Positions 8,175-36,809 of a stretch of 40,000 nucleotides of DNA are shown here, one piece after another. A program made the translations under genes and the position numbers. The DNA lies in contig NZ_LNTB01000001.1 in assembly GCF_001462395.1 (NCBI RefSeq), positions 1,304,758 to 1,344,757 of the forward strand. The letters are read 5' to 3'. The notes beneath the pieces were generated by a model. The model ran no database searches, was not told the DNA's origin, and saw nothing but the letters and a program-made list of their open reading frames with translations. The stretch is from Pyrodictium occultum. Its GTDB lineage: Archaea > Thermoproteota > Thermoprotei_A > Sulfolobales > Pyrodictiaceae. The first letter of the stretch is position 1. Every line of letters begins with the position of its first letter.

Positions 8175-8471
8175 GGGTGCCCTAGAGCCTTGAACCACCG
8201 CTCAGCAGCCCTCGCCCTGGCCGCCCTCGCCGCCTCGGCTGCCGCCCTCGCCCTGCTAGCAGGCTTCGCCACCACCCAGAGCCCGCTGAGCAGCTTCTAC
8301 GCGGTGGGCTGCGCGCAGGCGCCCAACGAGCCCATAAGCCTCCAGCAGCTCGGCAGCATAACCATAGCCCCAGCCTCCGGGGCCGAGGGCTCTCTCGAGG
8401 AGCCCGAGTGGCTCAAGATAACAAGGCACAGTGATGTCGACTATGTGAAGCTGGAGCTGAGCCTGGAGAAC
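8175..8471. repeat. 5' homology block of large paralog A, an inverted copy of 36513-36809
   Basis: By eye, both 297-bp blocks start 15 nt upstream of the TTG start (gggtgccctagagccTTGaaccacc...) and are near-identical, apart from a 42-bp fully diverged sub-block (8367-8408) and a few point differences. Confidence 0.85.
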
Positions 8472-9350
8472 GCGGATCAGCTGCGCCGGCTCCTAGACTA
8501 CCTAAGCATAGAGGTTAGGGAGGCATACCAGGTCTTCGAGGGCAACGTGACGACGGATCAGCCGTACTGTAAGAGGGCTCCTCAGGATGAGTGGCCGCAC
8601 CTCTCCTGGGCCATAGACGGCCACGGGAAGGATATAGCCGAGAAGCTTAAGCACGTCCTGCGGGGCCACGTGCAGAAGGGAATAGACGTCGATGCCGCGG
8701 TGCAGGACATACTCAGCAGAGTCTCCTACGCCACCATAACCCTAGCCTACCGCAACTACACCTACAACGGCACCCTATACCTGGCCCCGGGCAACGGCAC
8801 AGCAATCAACGAGACCCTCCACGAGATAGCCCGCCACCTGGTCCGGGGAAGCGGGATAGTGGTCCACACGCCCTACGCTGACGGTAGAGGCTTCCACCAC
8901 GTAGTGATTGAGGCCGACACGCAGCCCCCAACACTGTTCTTCGACTCCGCGGATTACGGCATAATAGTGGGCAACGGTACGAGCGGCCACAGGCCCGCGT
9001 CCGCTCTCAACTTCACCCTGCGGCTAGACTTCTACGATAGCTCCGGCAACTGGCTGTTCGCCATATGGTGGGACACGATCTACTACAGCTATGCCGGCGG
9101 CCGCTTTAACAACTGGGCCTCGTACGAGTATCTCAGCGTCGCCCGGCCGGTCCTCAAGCTGGGCAACGTTAGGGCCGTGCTCAGCCTGGGTAAGCCCAGC
9201 GCAGTGGTCGCTGTGGACGGGGACTCCTGGCTCTACGATGGAGGCCGGGCGGCGGTCCTGGGCGCCCGGGTGTACTACGAGGCTAGGGAGGGCGTGCTCT
9301 TCGACAGCGTGCCCCTGGTGATCAACGCCAGGGTGGTTGAGACGGGCTAG
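8190..9350 (+). CDS. Secreted TasA-like family protein, large paralog A (subunit fold with a roughly 250-aa inserted domain)
   Basis: Leader MNHRSAALALAALAASAAALALLAGFA followed by TTQSPLSSFYAVG. The N- and C-terminal segments are collinear with the short paralog 11282-11812 (KLELSLENADQL... / LSLGKPSAVVAVD...VLGARVYYEAREGVLFDSVPLVINARVVETG). Many N-x-S/T sequons fall in the inserted region. Confidence 0.8.
   Translation: MNHRSAALALAALAASAAALALLAGFATTQSPLSSFYAVGCAQAPNEPISLQQLGSITIAPASGAEGSLEEPEWLKITRHSDVDYVKLELSLENADQLRRLLDYLSIEVREAYQVFEGNVTTDQPYCKRAPQDEWPHLSWAIDGHGKDIAEKLKHVLRGHVQKGIDVDAAVQDILSRVSYATITLAYRNYTYNGTLYLAPGNGTAINETLHEIARHLVRGSGIVVHTPYADGRGFHHVVIEADTQPPTLFFDSADYGIIVGNGTSGHRPASALNFTLRLDFYDSSGNWLFAIWWDTIYYSYAGGRFNNWASYEYLSVARPVLKLGNVRAVLSLGKPSAVVAVDGDSWLYDGGRAAVLGARVYYEAREGVLFDSVPLVINARVVETG
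9225..9350. repeat. 3' homology block of paralog A, an inverted copy of 35526-35651
   Basis: 126 bp (tcctggctctacgatggaggccgg...gagacgggctag) read identical in both copies up to the stop codon. The flanks diverge immediately after the stop. Confidence 0.85.
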
Positions 9351-11281: not shown

Positions 11282-11812
11282 GTGAAGGGTCTGGTGAGGC
11301 GTATGAGGTACACGAGCCTGGCTCTAGCCGGCCTCGTCGCCTCGGCTGCCGCCCTCGCCCTGCTAGCAGGCTTCGCCACCACCCAGAGCCCGCTGAGCAG
11401 CTTCTACGCGGTGGGTGGCGCGCAGGCGCCCAACGAGCCCGTCACCATAACCAGCAACCTCAGCGGCATATCGCCCGCCGCCGGCGCGCAGGGCGATGCC
11501 GACATAGGCACTGTGACGGTGAAGGCCGGCAGCAACGTGAACGTTGTGAAGATAAGGGCCACCCTCGCCAACGCCGAGCAGCTGAAGAAGTACTTCGACT
11601 ACCTGGAGATAACCATAGCCAACGACAACGGCGAGGCTAAGGCCATGGTGAGCCTGGAGAAGCCCAGCGCCGTCATAGTGCTCGACCAGAACGACATAGG
11701 CGGTGACAACCAGGCGACGCTGAGCTTCCACGCCTACTACGAGGTCAAGGAGGGCATGCTGTTCGACAGCATGCCGGTGATCTTCAACTTCCAGGTGCTC
11801 AGCACCAGCTAA
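11282..11812 (+). CDS. Short secreted TasA-like family protein (paralog B), candidate major filament subunit
   Basis: 176-aa ORF (alternative start ATG 11303). Leader ...LALAGLVASAAALALLAGFA, then TTQSPLSSFYAVGGAQAPNEP. No Cys, beta-rich appearance, and a hydrophobic C-terminal strand MLFDSMPVIFNFQVLSTS. Confidence 0.8.
   Translation: MKGLVRRMRYTSLALAGLVASAAALALLAGFATTQSPLSSFYAVGGAQAPNEPVTITSNLSGISPAAGAQGDADIGTVTVKAGSNVNVVKIRATLANAEQLKKYFDYLEITIANDNGEAKAMVSLEKPSAVIVLDQNDIGGDNQATLSFHAYYEVKEGMLFDSMPVIFNFQVLSTS
11338..11440. repeat. About 103-bp block shared with paralogs A (8231-8333) and C (reverse strand)
   Basis: cgcctcggctgccgccctcgccctgctagcaggcttcgccaccacccagagcccgctgagcagcttctacgcggtggg...gcgcaggcgcccaacgagccc is identical to copy A except for 2 positions. 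Confidence 0.8.
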
Positions 11813-15446: not shown

Positions 15447-16883
15447 CTAGACCCTCTCGATGTGGAGCGCGTAGAGCCCATCCACCCGGGCAGCGTGGCC
15501 CGGCGGCACCAGGACGGTGGAGTCCTCCTCCTCGACCACCGCGGGGCCCGTGATCTCGGCCCCAGGCCTCAGGAGGGGCCTCCAGTACACCGGGGCCTCA
15601 ACCCAGCCCGCCTCCTCGAAGTAGACGCGCCTCCGCCCCCGCGGCTCTGGCCGGTGGGGCCTCGGCTCCCCCTGCGGCAGCCTGGGCTTCCCCGTCCTCC
15701 CGTAGGCGGTGAGCCGGGCCGCGACTATGAAGACCGGCGCCTCCCGGAGCCTGTAGCCGTACCGGGCCTCGTGGAGCCGGTGGAACTCCTCCACCGCCTC
15801 GCCCAGGCTGCCGCGGTAGGGGACCGTGATGCTGTAGGCCTGGCCCATGTACCTCATCTCCAGGCTCCTTGTCATCACTATCTTGTTGCCCGGCACGCCC
15901 TCCGCCCTGAGCATTGCCAGGGCCTTCTCCGCGAGGCTCTCGAACACCCTGTCGAGCTCCTCCTCGGAGACCTCGCCGGCGGCCCTCGCCACAGCCGCGT
16001 GGAGGTCGTGCCGGTAGTCGGTGAGCAGGAGCCCGAGGGCGGAGAAGACGCCGGGCATCGGCGGGACCACGACCCTCTCCATCCCCAGCTCCCCCGCCAG
16101 CTCAGCCGCGTGGAGGGGCCCGGCGCCCCCATAGGCGTAGAGGGTGAAGCGCCGGGGGTCGTAGCCCCTCTCCACGGTCACTATCCGGAGCGCCCTCGCC
16201 ATAATAGTGTTGGCTATCCTAACCACCGCCGCCGCTGCCTCGACCAGGTCCATGCCCAGCTTCTCCCCGAGCCCCGTGAGAGCCTCCAGCGCCAGGTCCC
16301 TGCGGAGCCGGAGGACGCCGCCGGCGAGGGCCTCGGGGAGCCTCCCGAGGACGAGCTGCGCGTCCGTAACCGTCGGCTCCCTCCCGCCCCGGCCGTAGCA
16401 GGCCGGCCCCGGGTCGGAGCCCGCGCTCACCGGGCCCACGCGGAGCGCGCCCCCCGCGTCGACCCAGGCGATGCTGCCCCCGCCCGCGCTGACCTCCACG
16501 AGGTCTATGAAGGGGTAGCGTACCGGGTACCCGGAGCCCCTCAGCTTCCTCCCCATGTGGGCCCTGCCGCCGACCTCGTACTCGCCCACCACGAGCGGCT
16601 CCCCGCCCACCACGGCGACAGCCTTCGCCGTGGTGCCGCCCATATCGAAGCCCACGGCGTGCTCGACCCCCATCAGCCTGGAGAAGTAGGCCGCCGCGAC
16701 CGCGCCGGCGGCGGGCCCGCTCTCGATGAACGCCGCGGGCCTCTCGACAGCCTGCTCGACCCCGGCCACCCCGCCGCTGCTCTGCATGACCAGGAGCGTC
16801 CCCCGGAACCCGCGGCGCCGCAGCTCCTCCAGGAGCCTGGCCAGGTAGCCGGAGAGCAGCGGCCGGAGCAGCGCGTTCACCAC
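15447..16883 (-). CDS. hyuA: Hydantoinase A / oxoprolinase family, C-terminal fragment (gene interrupted by a frameshift)
   Basis: Continues the Hydantoinase_A sequence (...VVNALLRPLL..., GFDMGGTTAK, SAGGGSIAWVD). The conserved REYERASTA immediately upstream is in this frame but lies before any start codon. Confidence 0.8.
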   Translation of the reverse strand: MVNALLRPLLSGYLARLLEELRRRGFRGTLLVMQSSGGVAGVEQAVERPAAFIESGPAAGAVAAAYFSRLMGVEHAVGFDMGGTTAKAVAVVGGEPLVVGEYEVGGRAHMGRKLRGSGYPVRYPFIDLVEVSAGGGSIAWVDAGGALRVGPVSAGSDPGPACYGRGGREPTVTDAQLVLGRLPEALAGGVLRLRRDLALEALTGLGEKLGMDLVEAAAAVVRIANTIMARALRIVTVERGYDPRRFTLYAYGGAGPLHAAELAGELGMERVVVPPMPGVFSALGLLLTDYRHDLHAAVARAAGEVSEEELDRVFESLAEKALAMLRAEGVPGNKIVMTRSLEMRYMGQAYSITVPYRGSLGEAVEEFHRLHEARYGYRLREAPVFIVAARLTAYGRTGKPRLPQGEPRPHRPEPRGRRRVYFEEAGWVEAPVYWRPLLRPGAEITGPAVVEEEDSTVLVPPGHAARVDGLYALHIERV

Positions 16884-17509
16884 AGCGGTGCTGGCCCTCT
16901 CGTACTCGCGGGCGCAGGGTCTACCTCATGGCTCGCCACCACCTCGGCGCCGGGGCACTCCTTTAGGATAATCCTCTTCGCCTCCTCCTCGTGCCCCGGG
17001 TTGGCGTAGCTATGGAGGAACGAGACGACGAACACCCTGGCTCGGCCGCACCACTCCCTCGCGATCCTCCTGACGGCCTCCCCGTCGAGGGGCTCTATCT
17101 CTTCCCCGCGGGGCCCTACCCGGCCCCTGACGGTCAGCCTCCGCTCCCTGGGCACGAGGGGCCTGGGCCGCTGGAAGAAGGGGTCGTAGAGGGTGGGGCG
17201 GGCCTGCCTGCCCAGCTCCAGCACGTCCCGGAAGCCTTCATTGGTCACGAGGACTGCCTCCGGCGGCTCCAGCCCCTCCTGGCCCAGGAACATGTTGGTG
17301 CCAAGGGTGGAGGCGTGGACTATGACCTCCACTGTGTCGAGGCTCCAGCCGAGCATCGCGAGGGCGTTCAGCACGCCCCTCCACGGCTCCCTCGGGGTGG
17401 TGAGGGTCTTGAGGCTCACAACCCTCCCCAACTCCTCGTCGAAGGCTACGAGGTCGGTGAAGGTGCCCCCGATGTCAACCCCTATCCTCCTCAAGGCCCG
17501 GGCCGGCAC
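16877..17509 (-). CDS. hyuA: Hydantoinase A / oxoprolinase family, N-terminal fragment
   Basis: IGVDIGGTFTDLVAF is the N-terminal ATPase motif of the Hydantoinase_A_N domain. The frame ends ...ASHEVDPAPASTRGPAPLW*, straight after the conserved SHEV. Confidence 0.8.
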   Translation of the reverse strand: MPARALRRIGVDIGGTFTDLVAFDEELGRVVSLKTLTTPREPWRGVLNALAMLGWSLDTVEVIVHASTLGTNMFLGQEGLEPPEAVLVTNEGFRDVLELGRQARPTLYDPFFQRPRPLVPRERRLTVRGRVGPRGEEIEPLDGEAVRRIAREWCGRARVFVVSFLHSYANPGHEEEAKRIILKECPGAEVVASHEVDPAPASTRGPAPLW

Positions 17510-25866: not shown

Positions 25867-27111
25867 CTATGGCCTGCAGTGTGGAGGGTCTGTGGTGTAG
25901 TCGAGCACTATGCTGATGCAGTGAAGCTTGTCGTTCCTGTCTACTGTGGCCTCTATTCTTGCCTGGAGCACTGCCGCGGGGTAGGTTCGGTCTCCGAGTC
26001 TTAGCTCGACGCAGTTGGATTTGTCTATGGGTATGGTTGCCGCTGGTTTCTGCGGTGTTAGGGTGGCTTTGTGCTCGTGGGCTGGGCTGTAGAGGTCTAT
26101 TCTCAGGCTGCGGATTAGTGAGCACGGGTGCATGGATTTGAGGGCTATTGTCAGGGCGTCTATGGGTGCGCCCCCGCTGCAGCCGCAGCTGCGGTCGAGT
26201 ATGATGTAGAGCGTGTAGTTCGCTACTAGCCTGCATATCCCCTCCTCCTCGCCGTGGTCTGCGGCTTTGCAGCTGCAGTCGAGGCGGATGGGGATGCTTG
26301 TTCTCCCGTGGAGTACCCAGGCGCGGGGGCAGTGACGGCCCTCTTCCTCTTCCTCCTTGGAGGTGTTGGTGGCGCTGGTGGTGCTCGTGCCGCTCCTCGT
26401 CCCCGTAGTGCTGCTCCATGTGCTAGTTGTGGCTCTGGTTGTTGTGATGGTTGTCGTGTTGCCCTGGGGGGCTGTGGTGCCTGTGGCTGTCGGGGCGGCT
26501 GGCGCTGTGGCCTGGCCCGTGGTGGTTGGCTGGGTGGTCTGCGTTATGGTGGCTCTGGGGGTTGCTGTGGGTGTGAAGTATATTGTGCCCGTCTCCTCGT
26601 CGGATATGGAGACCAGGACTGGCAGCTGCACCGCTGCCGTGCAGTTTCTCGGCATGTAGTATATCCTTGCCCCGAGGACCGCGTAGCGGCTGTCGCCGCT
26701 GCCGGCCCAGCTATCCGCGTCGAGCACTATGGCTGCTGAGGGCTTGTCGAGGGACAGTGTTGCGAGCAGCTCGTTGTTAAGCGTGTTGTAGACCTCGATG
26801 TGGAGGTAGCTGAGCCAGGCCCTCAGCAGGCTGGCGTCCGCTAGGCTGACCACCAGCTTGGCCAGCCGCACCCCCGGGGCCGGCTCTACGCGGATCCACC
26901 TGCCGACGTCGAGGCTCTCGACGCTGCAGGCCCCTCCCGTCCTGAGCACGGGCGTCTCTATGATGGAGACCTCCACCGGCTTGTGGACGGCCCTGGCCCC
27001 GCCCACGGCGTAGAAGTCGTTCAGGGGGCTCAGCGTGGTGGCGAACACCGCCGCCAGCGCAAGGGCTAGCGCGGATAGTATCAGCGCCAGGGCGAGGCTG
27101 GCACGCCTCAT
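25867..27111 (-). CDS. Secreted TasA-like family protein, paralog D: subunit domain, Thr-rich linker, then a second Cys-rich copy of the domain
   Basis: Leader MRRASLALALILSALALALAAVFA followed by TTLSPLNDFYAVGGA. Domain 1 (aa 1-175) is collinear with paralog B. The linker (aa 176-258) is T/S/P-rich and ends EEEEEG. Domain 2 repeats the key segments (ATLSLDKPSAAIVLD vs ATLTPQKPAATIPID; YAVLGARIYY vs AAVLQARIEAT) and has 10 Cys. Confidence 0.75.
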   Translation of the reverse strand: MRRASLALALILSALALALAAVFATTLSPLNDFYAVGGARAVHKPVEVSIIETPVLRTGGACSVESLDVGRWIRVEPAPGVRLAKLVVSLADASLLRAWLSYLHIEVYNTLNNELLATLSLDKPSAAIVLDADSWAGSGDSRYAVLGARIYYMPRNCTAAVQLPVLVSISDEETGTIYFTPTATPRATITQTTQPTTTGQATAPAAPTATGTTAPQGNTTTITTTRATTSTWSSTTGTRSGTSTTSATNTSKEEEEEGRHCPRAWVLHGRTSIPIRLDCSCKAADHGEEEGICRLVANYTLYIILDRSCGCSGGAPIDALTIALKSMHPCSLIRSLRIDLYSPAHEHKATLTPQKPAATIPIDKSNCVELRLGDRTYPAAVLQARIEATVDRNDKLHCISIVLDYTTDPPHCRP

Positions 27112-27283: not shown

Positions 27284-28432
27284 GTGTACTCTATGAGGCT
27301 GAGGCTTCCCCGGCGCGCGAGGGTGAGGAGGGAGCTGAGGCTAGCGGACGTCTGGCTCATGGAGCGCTGGCCGGTGGAGACCCTCGACGCCTCCAAGATG
27401 ACTGACCCACCGTTCGCCGACATAGGCGGCGCCGGCTCGGTTCTGGAGAGCCTCGTGGACCAGGCGGTGTCGGGCAGGGGCGGGATATACGTAGTAGTCG
27501 GCGGCCCCGGCTCGGGCAAGACGACGCTGCTCAAGACGCTTCACAGCCGGCTCCGCCGGGGAGGCGTGTACTCGGTCTACGTCAACGCCTCGGGCCGCAG
27601 CCTCGACGACCTGGTGGCCGGCCTCTGCACGATACTCGGCTGCACCGAGCCGAGCCTCGACTCGCTGAGGGAAAAGCTCCGGGAGAGGGCCGCCGAGAAG
27701 GGGGCTATGGCTCTGCTAGTAGACGATATCGACAGGATGGCGGGCGGGAACATCGACGACGTGATCAAGCTGCTCACAACCCTCACCTCGGCCCAGCGGG
27801 AGCTGGGCCGCAGCCTGCTCATAGTGTTCAGCATGGCCCGTGACACCCTGGCGAGGCTCAGCCTCGACCCGCTCACCAGGGGGCTGATAAAATCCTACAT
27901 GGAGGTTATAGACATGGACGAGCACCTGGTGAAATCCCCCAGCGACCTGGCGAGGCTTATCTACGCCCACTTCCAGCGGGTACGGCCCCGCAGCCTAAGC
28001 AAGAAGGCGGCCGCCACCCTGAGCCGCTACCCCCTCCACCCCATCAGGGACCAGAGCGTCATAAACGTGCTCTACGACGTGATAGGCGATGACACCCCCC
28101 GCGTGTACCTAGAGAAGCTCGACGAGCTCCTAAGGATAGCGGCCAGCTCGCGCTCACGCCTGGTAAGCGTTTCACACGCGAACGTGCTCGCCAGAAGGAT
28201 CCTCCAGGCCCGTCGCGGGGCGATACCCCTAACCCAGATCCGAGCCGTCATCCTACGCCGCTACGTCAACGGCCTCCTGGCCGGCGGGCTCGTAGTACTG
28301 GGCACGATGGCCGTAACACTCTCAATGATAAACCTCGTGCCACCAGGCCTCAAGCTGCCGTACATAGTCGTGGGCCTGGTGCTGATGCTGGTAGGCGTGC
28401 TCGTGCATATGAAATCCGTATCGGCCCCCTAA
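27284..28432 (+). CDS. AAA/P-loop ATPase with a C-terminal double-TM membrane anchor
   Basis: Walker A VVVGGPGSGKTTLL and Walker B ALLVDDIDRM. The C-terminus LLAGGLVVLGTMAVTLSMINLV...YIVVGLVLMLVGVLVHM forms two hydrophobic helices. The start may be ATG 27292. Confidence 0.75.
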   Translation: MYSMRLRLPRRARVRRELRLADVWLMERWPVETLDASKMTDPPFADIGGAGSVLESLVDQAVSGRGGIYVVVGGPGSGKTTLLKTLHSRLRRGGVYSVYVNASGRSLDDLVAGLCTILGCTEPSLDSLREKLRERAAEKGAMALLVDDIDRMAGGNIDDVIKLLTTLTSAQRELGRSLLIVFSMARDTLARLSLDPLTRGLIKSYMEVIDMDEHLVKSPSDLARLIYAHFQRVRPRSLSKKAAATLSRYPLHPIRDQSVINVLYDVIGDDTPRVYLEKLDELLRIAASSRSRLVSVSHANVLARRILQARRGAIPLTQIRAVILRRYVNGLLAGGLVVLGTMAVTLSMINLVPPGLKLPYIVVGLVLMLVGVLVHMKSVSAP

Positions 28433-28459: not shown

Positions 28460-29053
28460 GTGGGGGATGGTATGAGCAACGACTACCTAGACCTCACTGT
28501 GCCGGAGGAGGGCTCACTGACTGGAGCCCTACTAGCCCTGGCCGTGCTCGGCGTCATTGTAGCGGTTGGGCTAAGCCTGCGGGGCACTCTGCCGCGCTTC
28601 GCGGTGATCCAGACGACGAGCATGGTTCCAACCCTCGTGCCCGGCGACGTTGTTATGATAACCCATGTAAACCCTAATGACATACACATAGGTGACATAA
28701 TAGCCTTCAACCTGGTGGCATATGATATCGATAGCCAGGGGAGGCCCGTAGACGTAAGACGCACGGTAATAGTGGTCCACCGCGTGATAGGCAAGAAGGT
28801 TATCAACGGGCACCTCTACTTCCGCACCAAAGGCGACAACAACCCCACGCCAGACCCCTGGTATGTGCTCCCTCAGGGCGTGCTGGGCAAGGCCGAGAAG
28901 GTGGCCAGCCTGGGCAGCTTCGGCCTGGTGCTAACCAACCCGGTAGGGAGGATATTCGTGATAGTCATGATGCTCTCGTCCCTGGTGCTCCTGCTAAGCA
29001 CTGTGAGGAGCTATAGTAAAGGTATACGTGAGGACCTCGAGAGCTACATGTAG
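28460..29053 (+). CDS. Signal peptidase I, archaeal/ER type (S26B; Sec11/SipW-like)
   Basis: Catalytic Ser box TTSMVPTLVPGDVV, His box VVHRVIGK and the signature TKGDNNPTPDPW. It has N- and C-terminal TM anchors, as in SipW-type enzymes. Confidence 0.85.
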   Translation: MGDGMSNDYLDLTVPEEGSLTGALLALAVLGVIVAVGLSLRGTLPRFAVIQTTSMVPTLVPGDVVMITHVNPNDIHIGDIIAFNLVAYDIDSQGRPVDVRRTVIVVHRVIGKKVINGHLYFRTKGDNNPTPDPWYVLPQGVLGKAEKVASLGSFGLVLTNPVGRIFVIVMMLSSLVLLLSTVRSYSKGIREDLESYM

Positions 29054-30601: not shown

Positions 30602-33600
30602 TCATGGCCCCCGGCTGGCCCTCCTGGCCCCGCGGCTGCGCCTGAGCCTCAGCTTGCCCATGGCGGCGAGCAGCGAGACCACCGCCACGATGCTGACCGC
30701 AAGCACTATGAGGGCCCGCTGGCGGCGGGTCAGCGTCACCCCTCCCGCGGCGGGTGCGGGCGTGGCGTGGGCGGCCGTGGTGGGTGTCGCGGCGCCTCCC
30801 GCCGGCGTTGCTGTGGTGGGTGTCGTAGGCCTCTGGGACGCCGTGGTGGGACCGGCGCGGCTCGGGCCGAGGGGTATCTGCCCGCTTGTGCTTGCCAGTG
30901 TGAATGACTCGCTCGCCCCATCCGGCACCGCTCTAAGCACGACGCTGTATGGTATGCTGCTGCCGCTCCTCAACGCCACCTTCACCCTCATGGACAGGGT
31001 CTCGCCTGGGCGCAGCAGGCCGCTCCGCAGGGAGGCGGTCCCCGCCGTGTGGTTGCCCGGCTCGGCTTCGAGCACTGTCACACTATCTGGGAACGATATG
31101 CTGAGTATGGCGTTCTTGAAGTCTATGGAGTCTAGGTTGGCCACGCTGACCTCCAGCACTGCGAGGTTCCTATAGCTCTCCAGCTTCTTCACCTCAAGCT
31201 TCACGTAGGGCACCTTGACCCTGATGGGCACTGTTGCCAGCGCCTGGCCGCCCAGCCGGAGCACGAGGTACAGCGTGTCCTCGCTCCCCGGCGCGGCCAC
31301 CGGGGACACCTGGACCCCGGCCCACAGGGTGGTGAACTCCCCAGGCTCTATATCCACGCGGGTTGCCGGGAGGAAGAGCCTGGCTATGGAGCTCTCGTTA
31401 ACCGGCTCCAGCGCCGCGCCCGCTATCCTGACGCCCGAGGAAACCACTATCTTGACGTCAACCTTGCCGCCGGGCGGGGCGGCGATGTAGCTGGGCGTCA
31501 CGTCGACCCCCACGCTGCGGCGCAGGAGCTCTATCACCGGCACCCTGGCAATCTGGTACCTCTTGAGCAGGTAGCTGCCCGTGTCATCGTAGATCTCCAG
31601 GACCACGCTCAGAACGTCCAGGGGCTTGAGGCTCACCGTTCCCAGGCTCATGCTCACGTCCAGCGTGCGGTGGCTCCTAGCGGGCACCGTGACTACCTGG
31701 GCGTAGTCGTAGATGGCGCAGGCGCTGACGTTCACACAGTTCCCCTGGCCCCTGACCACCAGGAACCTGGCCAGGAACACAGAGTCGCGCTCGCTGGGGT
31801 TGTAGAAGGATACGTGGGCCACCAGCCCCCTCCTAGCTATGTCGACGCTCGCGCTCTCGAGCTGCGGCTCCACAACCACCGACCGTATCCTTATGCTCGT
31901 AGTGGCCGTGGCTACAGCCCTGCCGCTCGAGTCCAGCACCTCTATGCTGGCCGTGTAGGTGCCCGGGTAGGCTGTAGGGGGGACTGGGATGCTCACTATG
32001 AAGCTCGTGTCGCCGCCCAGGGGGACCAGCTCCTCCGCCGAGTCGGCCTCCCCAAGGCCCTCTATGGATATGTGGACCCTCAGCTTGGCCGCCGTGTTCC
32101 CCTCGTTGGCCACCTTCACCTCTACCCGGAAGCTCTTACCCACAACGGGCAGGTCTAGGACACGCACCTCCTCCACGCTCGCGGAGACCACGGGCTTGAC
32201 CTGGAGCAGGTTGTGGAGCCTCCAGGAGGCGTAGGGCTTGCCCGCTATGTAGAGCGTCGCGCTGGCGTCGTAGCTGCCGGCGGCCGCGTCCCTGGGGACC
32301 TGGATGGGGACCTCCACTACGTTCGCGCCGGGGAAGAGGGGGGCCTTGGCGCTGTAGCTCTTCCCGAACATGTTTATGACGAGCGTCGCGTCGACCGAGC
32401 CCTCGCCCTCCAGCCGCAGCCGGAGGGTGGCTATCGCCTGGCCGCCTGGGTCCACGCTCCCGGGGGACGCCGTGTAGCCCGTGAGGGATACCCGGTAGGA
32501 CACCACCTCTACCGCCGCGCCGGCCTTCGCGGGGGCGTAGAGGCTGTCCCCCTCGAACCTGGCCACTACATCGTGCCTGCCCAGCCCGAGCCATGAGGTG
32601 TCAAACTCCACCACCGCCACGCCGCTGCGGTCGGTGCGGCCCGTGCCGACGAGCCTCCCATCCACGTAGAAGCTGACAGAGCGCCCCACGATGGGCCTGC
32701 CCGAGAGCCCGTCGAGGAGCCGAGCCTCTAGGCGGGCCAGGCTGCCGCGGGTGACGATTATGCTCTGGGCCTCTACCCTGGCGGGCCTCCTGAGCACCTC
32801 TATAGCCGCCGTCTTCGAGCCCCTCAGCCCCGTGTTGTCGACTACGGTGAGCGTGACGTTGTAGACGCCGGGCTTCTCGAAGACGTGCGTGACTATCGCG
32901 CCGCTCGCCACCGTGCCGTCGCCGAAGTCCCAGTGGTACTCCGTGATGTTGCCGTCGGGGTCGTAGGAGAGGAGCCCGTAGAAGGTGACGTTGGAGCCCC
33001 AGTAGACGCGTCTAGGCGTGAACCAGAAGCCCGCCACGGGGGGCCTGCCCTTCACGCACCAGGTGGGCCGGGTGGTGAGCCAGGGCCGGTAGTCGACCGT
33101 CGCCTTCTCGCCGAGCATTATCCTGCTCCCCTTGCCGCCCGTGTTCCCGGGGGCTGCGGGGCCGGAGGGGTCGCCCCACCAGTTGTGCCCCGCGTAGACG
33201 TAGCCGCTGTCCACCCGGAGCCCGTAGAGCCCCTGGCCCAGGGGGCAGCTGTAGCTCACCACCGCCGTGGCGTCTTCAACGCTCTTGATGTATATGCCGC
33301 CGTTGATCCTGGAGTATAGGACAAGCAGCCTCGCCTTATTGCCCACGCCGCCCTTCTCGCCGTCCACGGTCAGGCTGTCGAGCTGGCACCTCTCAAGCCT
33401 CATAACCGTCGACTTCCCGTAGAGGCCCCAGTCCTCGCGTATCCAGTTGTCCGCTATGCTCTCCCCCCTCACAGCCACGGAGCCTAGGACGGAGTTCACC
33501 GCCGTGAAGCTCGAGTAGTCAAGCGCCCGGCCGGAGGAGGTCCCGTTGTAGAGGCCGTAGCCGTGGAGGACGACGCCCTCCAGCGAGGAGTCGAGCACGC

Positions 33601-34492
33601 TGAACTGGGAGGAGAGGAGCCCGTCAGGGCCCTCCACGATGAGCTTGCCGAGCCTGACGCGCTCCAGGGTTACGGTGCTGCGGAACACCGCCGCCCCCTC
33701 CCCGGCGTAGCTCCTGTCAACCACTATGCTCATGTTGGAGAAGCTGGAGTCCGACACCGTTATGTTGGAGTCGTACACGGCGTACATGATGGCTGGTATG
33801 AGCTTGTAGCTGGTAACAGTGACAGTCTTATTGCCGGCGGTCACGTTGTAGGTAACGGGGACCCGCAGCTGCAGCCCCGTCGCGCGCGCGTGTATCGTGA
33901 AGGCGCCGGTGGCGTTGACGCGGCTCAGCTCTATCCGGGACCCGTAGACCACTGTAGACTCGTTACCCAGGCCGATAGACTCCAGCTCAAGGTCCCCCTG
34001 TATGGTCACGTTGTCCAGCAGGAGGCTTGAGTTGTAGAGGCTCCTGTATGCTGACCGGAAGGAGATGCCTCCCTGCACCACGGAGTCTATGAACGTCGCG
34101 TTGGAGCTTGTGAACTCTGCGAACTCAAGCCCGTTTCTCACCACGACGTGCTTGAAGACGAGCACAGAGCTAACAACCACGAGGGTGCCGCGGCCGACGA
34201 GGATGACGGGCTCGCTCCGCGTGCCCTCAGCGAGTATAACCCCCCGCTCCACAGTGACGGTGACGCCGGGCGCGAATATGATTGTGACACCGCTCTCTAT
34301 CTTGACCTGCGCCATTATGCGTATATCCCTGGTTACCACGTAGGGGCTCCCGTCGCGGGTCAGAACAGTGTTAACCGTTATATCGCGGTCTATCGCCGTG
34401 GGCCCGCTCGCCCCCGCCGGGAGGCCTGCGAGCAGCGGCGCCGCGAGCGCTAGTAGGAGGAGAATGAGCATCAACAGCCTTCCGGGCTTCAA
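30602..34492 (-). CDS. Large (1296 aa) surface-anchored protein: signal peptide, beta-helix-like region, PKD domain, Ig/CARDB-like repeats, Thr/Pro stalk, C-terminal TM anchor
   Basis: Signal peptide MKPGRLLMLILLLLALAAPLLAGLPAGA. The N-terminal 430 aa contain repetitive short beta-rung-like segments. Classic PKD motif YHWDFGDGTVASGAIVTHVFEKPGVYNVTLTVVDNTGL. The C-terminus is TTASQRPTTPTTATPAGGAATPTTAAHATPAPAAGG plus TM ALIVLAVSIVAVVSLLAAM plus a basic tail. Confidence 0.85.
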   Translation of the reverse strand: MKPGRLLMLILLLLALAAPLLAGLPAGASGPTAIDRDITVNTVLTRDGSPYVVTRDIRIMAQVKIESGVTIIFAPGVTVTVERGVILAEGTRSEPVILVGRGTLVVVSSVLVFKHVVVRNGLEFAEFTSSNATFIDSVVQGGISFRSAYRSLYNSSLLLDNVTIQGDLELESIGLGNESTVVYGSRIELSRVNATGAFTIHARATGLQLRVPVTYNVTAGNKTVTVTSYKLIPAIMYAVYDSNITVSDSSFSNMSIVVDRSYAGEGAAVFRSTVTLERVRLGKLIVEGPDGLLSSQFSVLDSSLEGVVLHGYGLYNGTSSGRALDYSSFTAVNSVLGSVAVRGESIADNWIREDWGLYGKSTVMRLERCQLDSLTVDGEKGGVGNKARLLVLYSRINGGIYIKSVEDATAVVSYSCPLGQGLYGLRVDSGYVYAGHNWWGDPSGPAAPGNTGGKGSRIMLGEKATVDYRPWLTTRPTWCVKGRPPVAGFWFTPRRVYWGSNVTFYGLLSYDPDGNITEYHWDFGDGTVASGAIVTHVFEKPGVYNVTLTVVDNTGLRGSKTAAIEVLRRPARVEAQSIIVTRGSLARLEARLLDGLSGRPIVGRSVSFYVDGRLVGTGRTDRSGVAVVEFDTSWLGLGRHDVVARFEGDSLYAPAKAGAAVEVVSYRVSLTGYTASPGSVDPGGQAIATLRLRLEGEGSVDATLVINMFGKSYSAKAPLFPGANVVEVPIQVPRDAAAGSYDASATLYIAGKPYASWRLHNLLQVKPVVSASVEEVRVLDLPVVGKSFRVEVKVANEGNTAAKLRVHISIEGLGEADSAEELVPLGGDTSFIVSIPVPPTAYPGTYTASIEVLDSSGRAVATATTSIRIRSVVVEPQLESASVDIARRGLVAHVSFYNPSERDSVFLARFLVVRGQGNCVNVSACAIYDYAQVVTVPARSHRTLDVSMSLGTVSLKPLDVLSVVLEIYDDTGSYLLKRYQIARVPVIELLRRSVGVDVTPSYIAAPPGGKVDVKIVVSSGVRIAGAALEPVNESSIARLFLPATRVDIEPGEFTTLWAGVQVSPVAAPGSEDTLYLVLRLGGQALATVPIRVKVPYVKLEVKKLESYRNLAVLEVSVANLDSIDFKNAILSISFPDSVTVLEAEPGNHTAGTASLRSGLLRPGETLSMRVKVALRSGSSIPYSVVLRAVPDGASESFTLASTSGQIPLGPSRAGPTTASQRPTTPTTATPAGGAATPTTAAHATPAPAAGGVTLTRRQRALIVLAVSIVAVVSLLAAMGKLRLRRSRGARRASRGP

Positions 34493-35525: not shown

Positions 35526-35651
35526 CTAGCCCGTCTCAACCACCCTGGCGTTGATCACCAGGGGCACGCTGTCGAAGAGCACGCCCTCCCTAGCCTCGTA
35601 GTACACCCGGGCGCCCAGGACCGCCGCCCGGCCTCCATCGTAGAGCCAGGA
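35526..35651. repeat. 3' homology block of paralog C (inverted copy of 9225-9350)
   Basis: The reverse complement reads identical to 9225-9350, including the stop codon. Confidence 0.85.
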
Positions 35652-36794
35652 GGAGTTGTCCAGCACGAGCACAGCCTCCGGCACGGACCAGCCGCTGGAG
35701 GAGTCAAAGCCGAGCACAACCCTGGCGCCGGCATGCCCGCCCTGGCCGGCCCGAGCAGCCTGGACGGGCACCGCCTGGGCGGAGACTGTGGCGCCCTCTT
35801 TAACGTCTATCCAGTTGTACCTGCCCCGCTGTGGTACAGTAATATTGGCGTTGCCGATAGTGACGCTGCTCTTATTGACATAGGTGTAGTAGCCGCGCCA
35901 CCATATGCTGAAGAGCCACCGGCCGCTGGCGTCGTAGAAGTCTAGGGAGAGGGTCCAGTTCAATGCAGAGTAGACGATGTCAAACCCTCCCTCGACGCTG
36001 CCATTGAGCAGCCAGACCCCGTAGTCCCTAGAGTCGAGTACAACCCTCTCAAACCGCCATGGGCCAAGTACGCCGGCCTGCATGTACACCGACAACCTAG
36101 CCCCCTGCGGCGGCTCGCGGTCAAGCACGTACGCGAAGAGCTTACCCCTCTTCAGCGAGTCCACAATAATGCCTGGAGCGGTGCTGTTCTCCGGCGCCAG
36201 GCTTACCTCCCCGCCGGCAGTGGAGTTGCCGTACGAGAACCTCACTACAGCGTAGGAGGCATTGCGCCAGAGCCTGTTTGCGGCAGCGTTTGCATTCTTC
36301 ACGCCCGCCTTGGCCAGCGCGTTGCTCAGCAGCCATAGGGCTTCAGTCCTGTCCACCAGCGCCCCCCACCAGCAGTCGAACATGTAGAGGGGGGCGTCCA
36401 CCAGCGTAACGTTGTAGCTCATAGCGGGGGGCGGGGCGGCGCTCCCGGCGGCGGGCTCCCCCACCTCTACGACCACGGCCAGGTACCTGAAGAGCCTCTC
36501 CAGGTACTCTATGTTCTCCAGGCTCAGCTCCAGCTTCACATAGTCGACATCACTGTGCCTTGTTATTTTGAGCCAGGTGGTCACCTCCACTACTCCCTGG
36601 GAGCCCGCTGCGGGGCTTATGGTTATGCTGCCGAGCTGCTGGAGGCTTATGGGCTCGTTGGGCGCCTGCGCGCCGCCCACCGCGTGGAAGCTGCTCAGCG
36701 GGCTCTGGGTGGTGGCGAAGCCTGCTAGCAGGGCGAGGGCGGCAGCCGAGGCGGCGAGGGCGGCCAGGGCGAGGGCTGCTGAGCGGTGGTTCAA
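35526..36794 (-). CDS. Secreted TasA-like family protein, large paralog C (subunit fold with a roughly 270-aa inserted domain)
   Basis: The first ~60 aa and the last 42 aa are (near-)identical to paralog A. The central region is homologous to A but strongly diverged (e.g. ALNWTLSLDFYDASGRWLFSIWW vs ALNFTLRLDFYDSSGNWLFAIWW). At least 9 N-x-S/T sequons. Confidence 0.8.
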   Translation of the reverse strand: MNHRSAALALAALAASAAALALLAGFATTQSPLSSFHAVGGAQAPNEPISLQQLGSITISPAAGSQGVVEVTTWLKITRHSDVDYVKLELSLENIEYLERLFRYLAVVVEVGEPAAGSAAPPPAMSYNVTLVDAPLYMFDCWWGALVDRTEALWLLSNALAKAGVKNANAAANRLWRNASYAVVRFSYGNSTAGGEVSLAPENSTAPGIIVDSLKRGKLFAYVLDREPPQGARLSVYMQAGVLGPWRFERVVLDSRDYGVWLLNGSVEGGFDIVYSALNWTLSLDFYDASGRWLFSIWWRGYYTYVNKSSVTIGNANITVPQRGRYNWIDVKEGATVSAQAVPVQAARAGQGGHAGARVVLGFDSSSGWSVPEAVLVLDNSSWLYDGGRAAVLGARVYYEAREGVLFDSVPLVINARVVETG

Positions 36795-36809
36795 GGCTCT
36801 AGGGCACCC
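36513..36809. repeat. 5' homology block of paralog C (inverted copy of 8175-8471)
   Basis: The reverse complement matches 8175-8471, including 15 nt upstream of the TTG start, with one 42-bp diverged sub-block. Confidence 0.85.

Follow-up and report, generated by a model that had tools for sequence, protein, structure and literature searches.

The stretch analysed here, called the window in what follows, comprises 40,000 nucleotides (nt) of the Pyrodictium occultum genome (contig NZ_LNTB01000001.1, positions 1,304,758 to 1,344,757; coordinates count from its first letter unless a genome position is named) and encodes four paralogs of the cannula-subunit family. Two of them, genes A and C, have ends that are almost identical in DNA and cores that are strongly diverged, a mosaic already noticed when only the letters and the open reading frames (ORFs) had been inspected (hereafter the sequence-only reading). 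The four genes are:

8190 to 9350, forward strand: gene A, 386 amino acids, TTG start, with a large insert; a cannula-subunit paralog of the CanX/CanA family, from its ORF and its PDB sequence and fold matches
11303 to 11812, forward strand: gene B, 169 amino acids, the counterpart of CanX, with a leader and donor-strand tract at 11317–11440
25867 to 27111, reverse strand: gene D, a cannula-like paralog of 414 amino acids, of which a P. abyssi orthologue exists
35526 to 36794, reverse strand: gene C, 422 amino acids, TTG start; a cannula-subunit paralog, inverted with respect to A and ~27 kb apart from it

Cannulae are the extracellular tubes of Pyrodictium, and all four genes code for subunits of them that belong to the CanX/CanA family, within the TasA superfamily. 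Scans against Pfam and NCBIfam gave no family for any of the four, and the assignment rests on sequence and fold searches against PDB, in which B matched CanX (9h8b), the P. abyssi cannula subunit known ex vivo, at 4e-58 and CanA (7uii) at 7e-41. Gene A matched CanX 9h8b at 1.2e-37 in two stretches (amino acids 5–108 and 326–383), separated by an insert of ~215 amino acids, and also matched CanA 7uii. The AlphaFold2 (AF2) model of A has a mean predicted local distance difference test (pLDDT) score of 66.5, with jelly-roll segments at 80–94 and a poorly modelled insert, part of it below 50. A fold search with this model returned 7uii, 9h8b, 9hdi, 9bab, and 9dlo at probability 1.0, with template modelling (TM) scores, TM(target), of 0.59–0.72, the matches at probability 1 being cannula structures only. 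The leaders of A and C and the motif past the predicted cleavage site align residue for residue with CanX and CanA, including the amphipathic donor strand with its aromatic residue and conserved central Gly, as these features are defined by Sleutel et al. (Nat Commun 2025, PMC12518558). CanX and CanA of P. abyssi belong to the same family as A–D, with a Sec-type leader, an N-terminal donor strand, a jelly-roll core, and calcium loops, and the P. abyssi AV2 genome encodes CanX exactly. Many cannula paralogs with substantial domain insertions, located in gene clusters, have already been published (PMC12518558); the available portions of that paper do not report nucleotide-identical ends or gene conversion among the CanX/CanA paralogs.

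There are five clear cannula paralogs in the P. occultum genome, namely A, B, C, and D in the window and E at ~1 Mb distance, together with F, a weaker sixth member of the family. According to whole-genome searches all six are full length and each has its own ends. The ends of D are not homogenised with those of the other paralogs (leader identity of 65–69% at the nucleotide level). The sixth, more distant cannula/Abp-like paralog was found at G000:C1:1414835-1415062 within an ORF of 162 amino acids, a stop-to-stop frame without an obvious signal peptide. Among the 28 family genomes, homologues appear only in P. abyssi and one more distant genome (G018), and A/C-type genes in two genomes only.

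Comparison of A and C divides both genes into the following segments:

8175 to 8366, forward strand: putative 5′ converted tract 1, 192 bp long and differing from C at 2 positions; it runs from 15 nt before the start codon through the signal peptide and donor strand A to the short strands after it
8367 to 8408, forward strand: unconverted patch, 42 bp, amino acids 60–73; equivalent of the CanA axial calcium loop 34–40 and the start of strand B
8409 to 8471, forward strand: putative 5′ converted tract 2, 63 bp long with one synonymous difference to C; remainder of strand B, then strand C
8472 to 9223, forward strand: diverged core of A, insert domain and inner jelly-roll strands, with all 7 N-X-S/T sequons
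9224 to 9350, forward strand: putative 3′ converted block of A, 127 bp; strand J, the loop equivalent to CanA 161–173, strand K, and the stop codon
35526 to 35652, reverse strand: 3′ block of C, identical to 9224–9350
35653 to 36512, reverse strand: diverged core of C, with all 9 sequons
36513 to 36809, reverse strand: 5′ block of C, with the unconverted patch at 36576–36617

In an ungapped comparison the 297-bp 5′ block of A (8175–8471), set against the reverse complement of 36513–36809, shows only three mismatches outside the patch (at 8298, 8310, and 8417), in agreement with the near-identical blocks starting 15 nt before the TTG that the sequence-only reading had described, and its longest exact stretch measures 123 bp. 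The 42-bp sub-block had been called completely different, which overstates the case: 20 of the 42 bases differ, leaving 52% nucleotide identity and 5 of 14 amino acids identical, so that the patch is as diverged as the core. At the 3′ side the identity is exact between 9224–9350 and 35526–35652 and includes the stop codon, as claimed, over 127 bp and not 126. The 100 nt outside each block are unrelated between A and C, and similarity does cease abruptly past the stop. Between the blocks blastn finds a single match (71 bp at 76%), and the core proteins align at roughly 30–35% identity with several indels, which bears out a homology of the cores at the protein level only. Over 124 bp, gene B is 94.4% identical to A and equally to C (8210–8333 vs. 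11317–11440), which is the leader and N-terminal DNA sharing that had been pointed out for it. All the coordinates given earlier were right within one base.

Synonymous (dS) and non-synonymous (dN) divergence, estimated by the Nei-Gojobori method on the codon alignment of A and C, are far from uniform along the pair, with dS ~0 in the ends vs. ~1.3 in the core, where the sequence-only reading would have been contradicted by a uniform profile. Specifically, dS and dN are 0.017 and 0.011 in the 5′ block with the patch excluded, 1.37 and 0.61 in the patch, and 1.28 and 0.75 in the core; in the 3′ block dS is 0, and its dN is unreliable, the window having opened one codon upstream of the identical stretch, which itself holds no difference. 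Where A and C have the same amino acid, the codon is also the same at 118 of 119 positions of the ends and at 41 of 82 of the core (Fisher p = 1.3e-18). The longest identical run in the gap-stripped alignment reaches 124 nt; no run exceeded 32 when the differing sites were permuted 5000 times. Chance is excluded as the source of the A/C identity.

Outside P. occultum, the A/C-type genes are AC1 (P0008) and AC2 of P. abyssi, the second located directly downstream of CanX with a reading frame that changes mid-gene. In AC2 (L041, reverse strand, about 16065–17300) the N- and C-terminal parts are intact in one frame and the middle is in another; the gene is a pseudogene or carries a sequencing error or a frameshift. 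The closest relative of the A core is P0006, a JGI metagenome fragment with a core 56% identical to that of A in amino acids. A gene from an ENA contig, P0009, is 82% identical to AC1 in nucleotides just past the leader and has a CanX-type leader; its reading frame (L046) also changes near the 3′ end. Neither 5.8 billion proteins (word-based search) nor 1.84 billion representative proteins (exhaustive HMMER search) yielded anything closer to the core of C than A. The same end segments that are identical in A and C have, for A or C, a dS of 0.88–0.96 to AC1 and of 0.79–0.80 to P0006. Because these ends reach ~0.8–0.96 in other lineages, constraint alone is not the cause of their identity in A and C, and the earlier argument that protein-level selection is insufficient stands on this contrast between dS ~0 within the pair and ~0.9 between species. 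The core has a proportion of synonymous differences (pS) of 0.61–0.81, and, being near saturation, it does not allow the A/C duplication to be dated relative to speciation.

The blocks were mapped on the cannula structure from the description of CanA and CanX in PMC12518558, the alignments, and the DSSP secondary structure of the A model. By homology, the 5′ block codes for the signal peptide and donor strand A, then for two short strands and strands B and C, and stops just before the helix; strand J, the equivalent of loop 161–173 (the other axial calcium loop), and strand K are encoded by the 3′ block. Loop 34–40 of CanA is an axial calcium site that rearranges upon calcium binding, and each subunit receives donor strand A of its neighbour between its own strands B and K (PMC12518558). 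By virtue of this docking, the identical DNA covers the whole donor/acceptor interface. Leader, donor strand, and acceptor strands had indeed been assigned to the ends by the sequence-only reading, and homology to CanA and CanX places them there. The glycosylated insert was likewise rightly set apart from the ends, as all the sequons fall within it (7 of 7 in A and 9 of 9 in C within the cores, and 0 in the blocks). In CanA, the loop found at the site of this insert juts out from the outer surface, according to the description in PMC12518558. Both predicted calcium loops (CanA 34–40 and 161–173) align in A and C, the first of them being substituted with respect to a nearly invariant family motif. 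The first 190 bp contain two differences, both non-synonymous and both in the donor strand: Tyr to His in C, where His replaces the donor-strand Tyr, and Gly to Cys in A, where the Cys stands beside the conserved central Gly. Judged against B and E, each of these substitutions is derived in its own gene.

The leader and donor-strand segment (36 codons) has a wider distribution of homogeneity. Within the P. occultum genome A, C, B, and E are 92–98% identical in nucleotides over this segment, whereas between the two genomes the range is 72–83% (D-type genes and AC2 excluded). A single donor-strand motif is common to A, C, B, and E of P. occultum; other motifs are found in P. abyssi genes. Trees of the two segments conflict. 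In the leader tree A, C, and B form a clade (support 86/82), while in the tree of the next 62 residues B and E are found inside the CanX clade (97/99) with A and C outside; these segments are short and the support is moderate. The homogeneity of the leader and the conflict between trees point therefore to an older layer of conversion across subfamilies. As divergence is 1.2% between A and C vs. 4.8% between A/C and B, the A–C conversions would be the most recent layer.

The best explanation seems to be a recent, discontinuous ectopic gene conversion between the inverted paralogs A and C, superimposed on an earlier round that homogenised leader and donor strand in A, B, C, and E, and we consider it very probable. 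Conversion of the ends had been the proposal of the sequence-only reading, and it agrees with dS values of ~0 in the ends, ~1.3 in the core, and ~0.9 between species, as well as with the disagreement between leader and post-leader trees; we infer the mechanism from this mosaic and its statistics. According to this explanation A and C would be old, diverged paralogs of the Pyrodictium cannula-subunit family, and recombination between the inverted copies would recently have written the ends of one gene over those of the other, hitting two tracts at the 5′ side (8175–8366 and 8409–8471), skipping the 42-bp patch, and taking in the last 127 bp. In that earlier round, the same process may have homogenised A, C, B, and the distant paralog E over the sequence coding for leader and donor strand. 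The ends presumably evolve slowly and encode the polymerisation interface, and the substitutions and indels of the cores would block the formation of heteroduplex. Conversion would be confined to the ends because only they keep enough colinear nucleotide similarity.

The patch itself appears to be a remnant of the old divergence, since each variant is nearest to A/C-type genes of other lineages: AC1 and P0009 come closest to both (25–29 of 42 nt), and neither variant matches B or E. A micro-conversion of the patch by B or E was rejected on the same grounds, both variants being nearest to A/C-type genes found elsewhere. It is possible that selection acted against converting a calcium loop specific to each paralog. 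Discontinuous tracts of this kind have an experimental precedent in the hyperthermophilic crenarchaeon Sulfolobus acidocaldarius, where homologous recombination is short-patch and discontinuous, with tracts of tens to hundreds of bp that are sometimes two, split by recipient markers (PMC3367456). This matches the 192- and 63-bp tracts around the 42-bp patch, although that system involves introduced DNA in another order of Thermoproteota and not chromosomal paralogs as in Pyrodictium.

As a result the donor strands of A and C are identical save for one substitution each, their acceptor grooves (strands B and K) are identical, and their donor strand is nearly that of B. With such a shared interface, A and C should dock into each other, and probably into the main subunit, bearing different glycosylated outer domains. 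We infer from this the prediction that A and C co-assemble, perhaps with the major subunit, and so decorate the tube surface with different glycosylated domains. A role for selection in favour of interface compatibility is a real possibility, if somewhat less likely than not. The structures of cannulae date only from 2025. What is new here is that conversion, discontinuous and limited to the interface, shows so cleanly between chromosomal paralogs of a member of Thermoproteota; the process itself is well known.

In bacterial flagellins, conserved N- and C-termini form the filament core, and a hypervariable, exposed, and often glycosylated middle part tolerates replacement. They resemble A and C in having the determinants of polymerisation at both ends and a variable exposed middle, but these are coiled-coil D0/D1 domains instead of donor-strand complementation, a different fold with no homology. 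Archibald and Roger reportedly described in 2002 gene conversion between crenarchaeal chaperonin (thermosome) paralogs, a case similar to ours in being partial and segment-limited, between subunit paralogs, and in hyperthermophilic archaea; the thermosome, unlike the cannulae, is a cytoplasmic hetero-oligomer and not a secreted filament, and the conserved segment is the ATPase domain. Concerted evolution of prokaryotic paralogs that code for subunits of homopolymers or complexes is also known, for example in fla, tuf, and mtrA, and has been tied to proteins that fit one assembly by the argument of paralog interference (PMC6053082, PMC4632066). There too the paralogs within a genome are closer than the orthologues between species, but in A and C only the ends coding for the interface are homogenised, with a core dS above 1. 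The seven archaeal cases in the survey of PMC6053082 all come from methanogens, and none is a surface filament or belongs to Thermoproteota.

Some observations weigh against conversion as the full account, or narrow its reach. Mean pS between species is 0.38 in the leader vs. 0.62 in mid-gene, and the leader is lower in all comparisons. Within it, the 20-codon core of the signal peptide uses the same codons, the minor TCG, GCT, and CTA among them, in almost every paralog of P. occultum and P. abyssi:

8231 to 8290 (A), 11338 to 11397 (B), and 36694 to 36753 (C): signal-peptide core, with the same segment in the L041, L039, L043, and L044 paralogs

The fraction of identical codons among conserved residues of this core is 0.81, compared to 0.38 expected from genome codon usage. 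Conversion within a genome does not account for what is conserved across species; the leader is under some constraint on its nucleotides, codons, or RNA, and part of the similarity of B to A and C is not due to conversion. The leaders of the more distant genus (G018) differ and are uninformative on the signal-peptide codons. Besides, the two A/C-type genes of P. abyssi have diverged ends, unlike A and C: AC1 and AC2 are not homogenised, therefore identical ends are not a general property of the A/C subfamily. Conversion had been called recurrent by the sequence-only reading, which the data bear out only for the leader and donor strand within this genome. Finally, the genome is known from one short-read, hand-superassembled assembly, and the length of the 3′ block coincides with an assembly parameter; both points are taken up below.

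Among the alternatives, a recent duplication of the whole gene could have been followed by replacement of the core of one copy with a foreign divergent allele, by recombination in the conserved ends. It would account for a C core that has no relative closer than A while the A core has the closer P0006, and for a block identity that stops exactly at the edges of the gene unit. Its donor is not known, however, A and C are 27 kb apart and inverted instead of tandem, and the divergence of the patch, equal to that of the core, would call for a further event. The outcome would be the same as that of conversion, with only the source of the DNA being different. We regard this scenario as improbable.

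We give similarly little weight to the idea of a maintained "plug" module, in which selection would favour conversion so that the outer domains of both A and C enter the B lattice, and crossovers between the inverted modules would also swap domains between two differently regulated loci. If true, it would represent recombination-based surface variation of cannulae in a hyperthermophilic archaeon.

A related, programmed form of variation would use the inverted identical ends as recombination sites, an inversion or double crossover swapping the exposed inserts between two expression sites. The geometry is suggestive, as the blocks are inverted repeats ~27 kb apart, the A–C 5′ block is the longest dispersed repeat of a repeat-poor genome, with a crossover in the 5′ block the two upstream regions would trade cores, and the cores hold all the glycosylation sites. 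On the other side, no recombinase or integrase gene was found in the window by Pfam scans of 27 ORFs within it (8 of them without a Pfam hit), and the 27 kb between the blocks consist of housekeeping genes, with hydantoinase/oxoprolinase subunits, HerA, PAPS reductase, signal peptidase, and similar functions. In the Neisseria pilE/pilS system variable pilin segments are exchanged by gene conversion through conserved flanks, with many silent promoterless cassettes and a dedicated initiation site. Silent cassettes and an initiation site are needed there and there are none here; whole-genome searches recovered the six full-length paralogs only. The "variable-cassette logic" of the sequence-only reading finds thus no counterpart in silent cassettes across the genome or in a recombinase within the window, and we see a slim chance for a programmed device.

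An artefact, in which contig extension and superassembly collapsed the reads of two ends of moderate similarity, seems very unlikely. The material for it exists, as the assembly is short-read and its contigs were joined by read mapping and by hand: the draft of P. occultum PL19 was obtained with MiSeq and SPAdes 3.1.0 as 14 contigs that were reduced to 2 by read extension/mapping and manual superassembly (PMC4767911). However, the 5′ block keeps three single-nucleotide differences and a distinct 42-bp patch, which means that the copies were resolved. A and C are in frame and colinear with other members of the family across the junctions, there are no orphan 3′ ends or gene ends elsewhere in the genome, and a third and a fourth copy (B and E) show the leader tract with differences of their own. 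The largest k-mer of SPAdes is 127, which equals the length of the 3′ block. The genome report gives no k values (PMC4767911) and the match is probably a coincidence; at k = 127 the longest exact 5′ stretch (123 bp) would leave separate paths.

Purifying selection alone, at the protein and the codon or RNA level and with no recombination, would fit the conserved codons of the signal-peptide core across species and the lowered pS of the leader in all comparisons, but it is extremely improbable given that the same end segments have a dS of about 0.8–0.96 between species, that the identity takes in 15 nt upstream and stops abruptly, and that the segment trees are incongruent.

A diversity-generating or hypermutation origin of the core was also considered and rejected, its synonymous sites being near saturation with multiple indels, and no reverse-transcriptase domain having appeared in Pfam scans of the ORFs of the window.

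The P. occultum genome contains only 47 repeat pairs. A 270-bp tract with 97.8% identity (G000:C1:260974-261243 vs. 908984-909253) covers the signature region of two otherwise different ABC-transporter ATPase genes, and with further near-identical tracts between diverged paralogs partial conversion would be a general feature of this genome. An element of ~245 bp, with no convincing ORF, is present in three copies at 99–100% (G000:C1:633443-633687, 1408975-1409229, and 1435557-1435807), and a 263-bp repeat pair was found at 197139 and 1482561. As to the neighbours of the cannula genes, paralog D adjoins an AAA/STAND-like ATPase (27284–28432) and a homologue of signal peptidase S26 (28460–29053). 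Gene C is followed downstream at ~1 kb, also on the reverse strand, by the gene for a protein of 1296 amino acids with PKD and Ig-like domains (30602–34492), with a PP2C-like gene on the opposite strand between the two; this large protein is possibly another surface protein.

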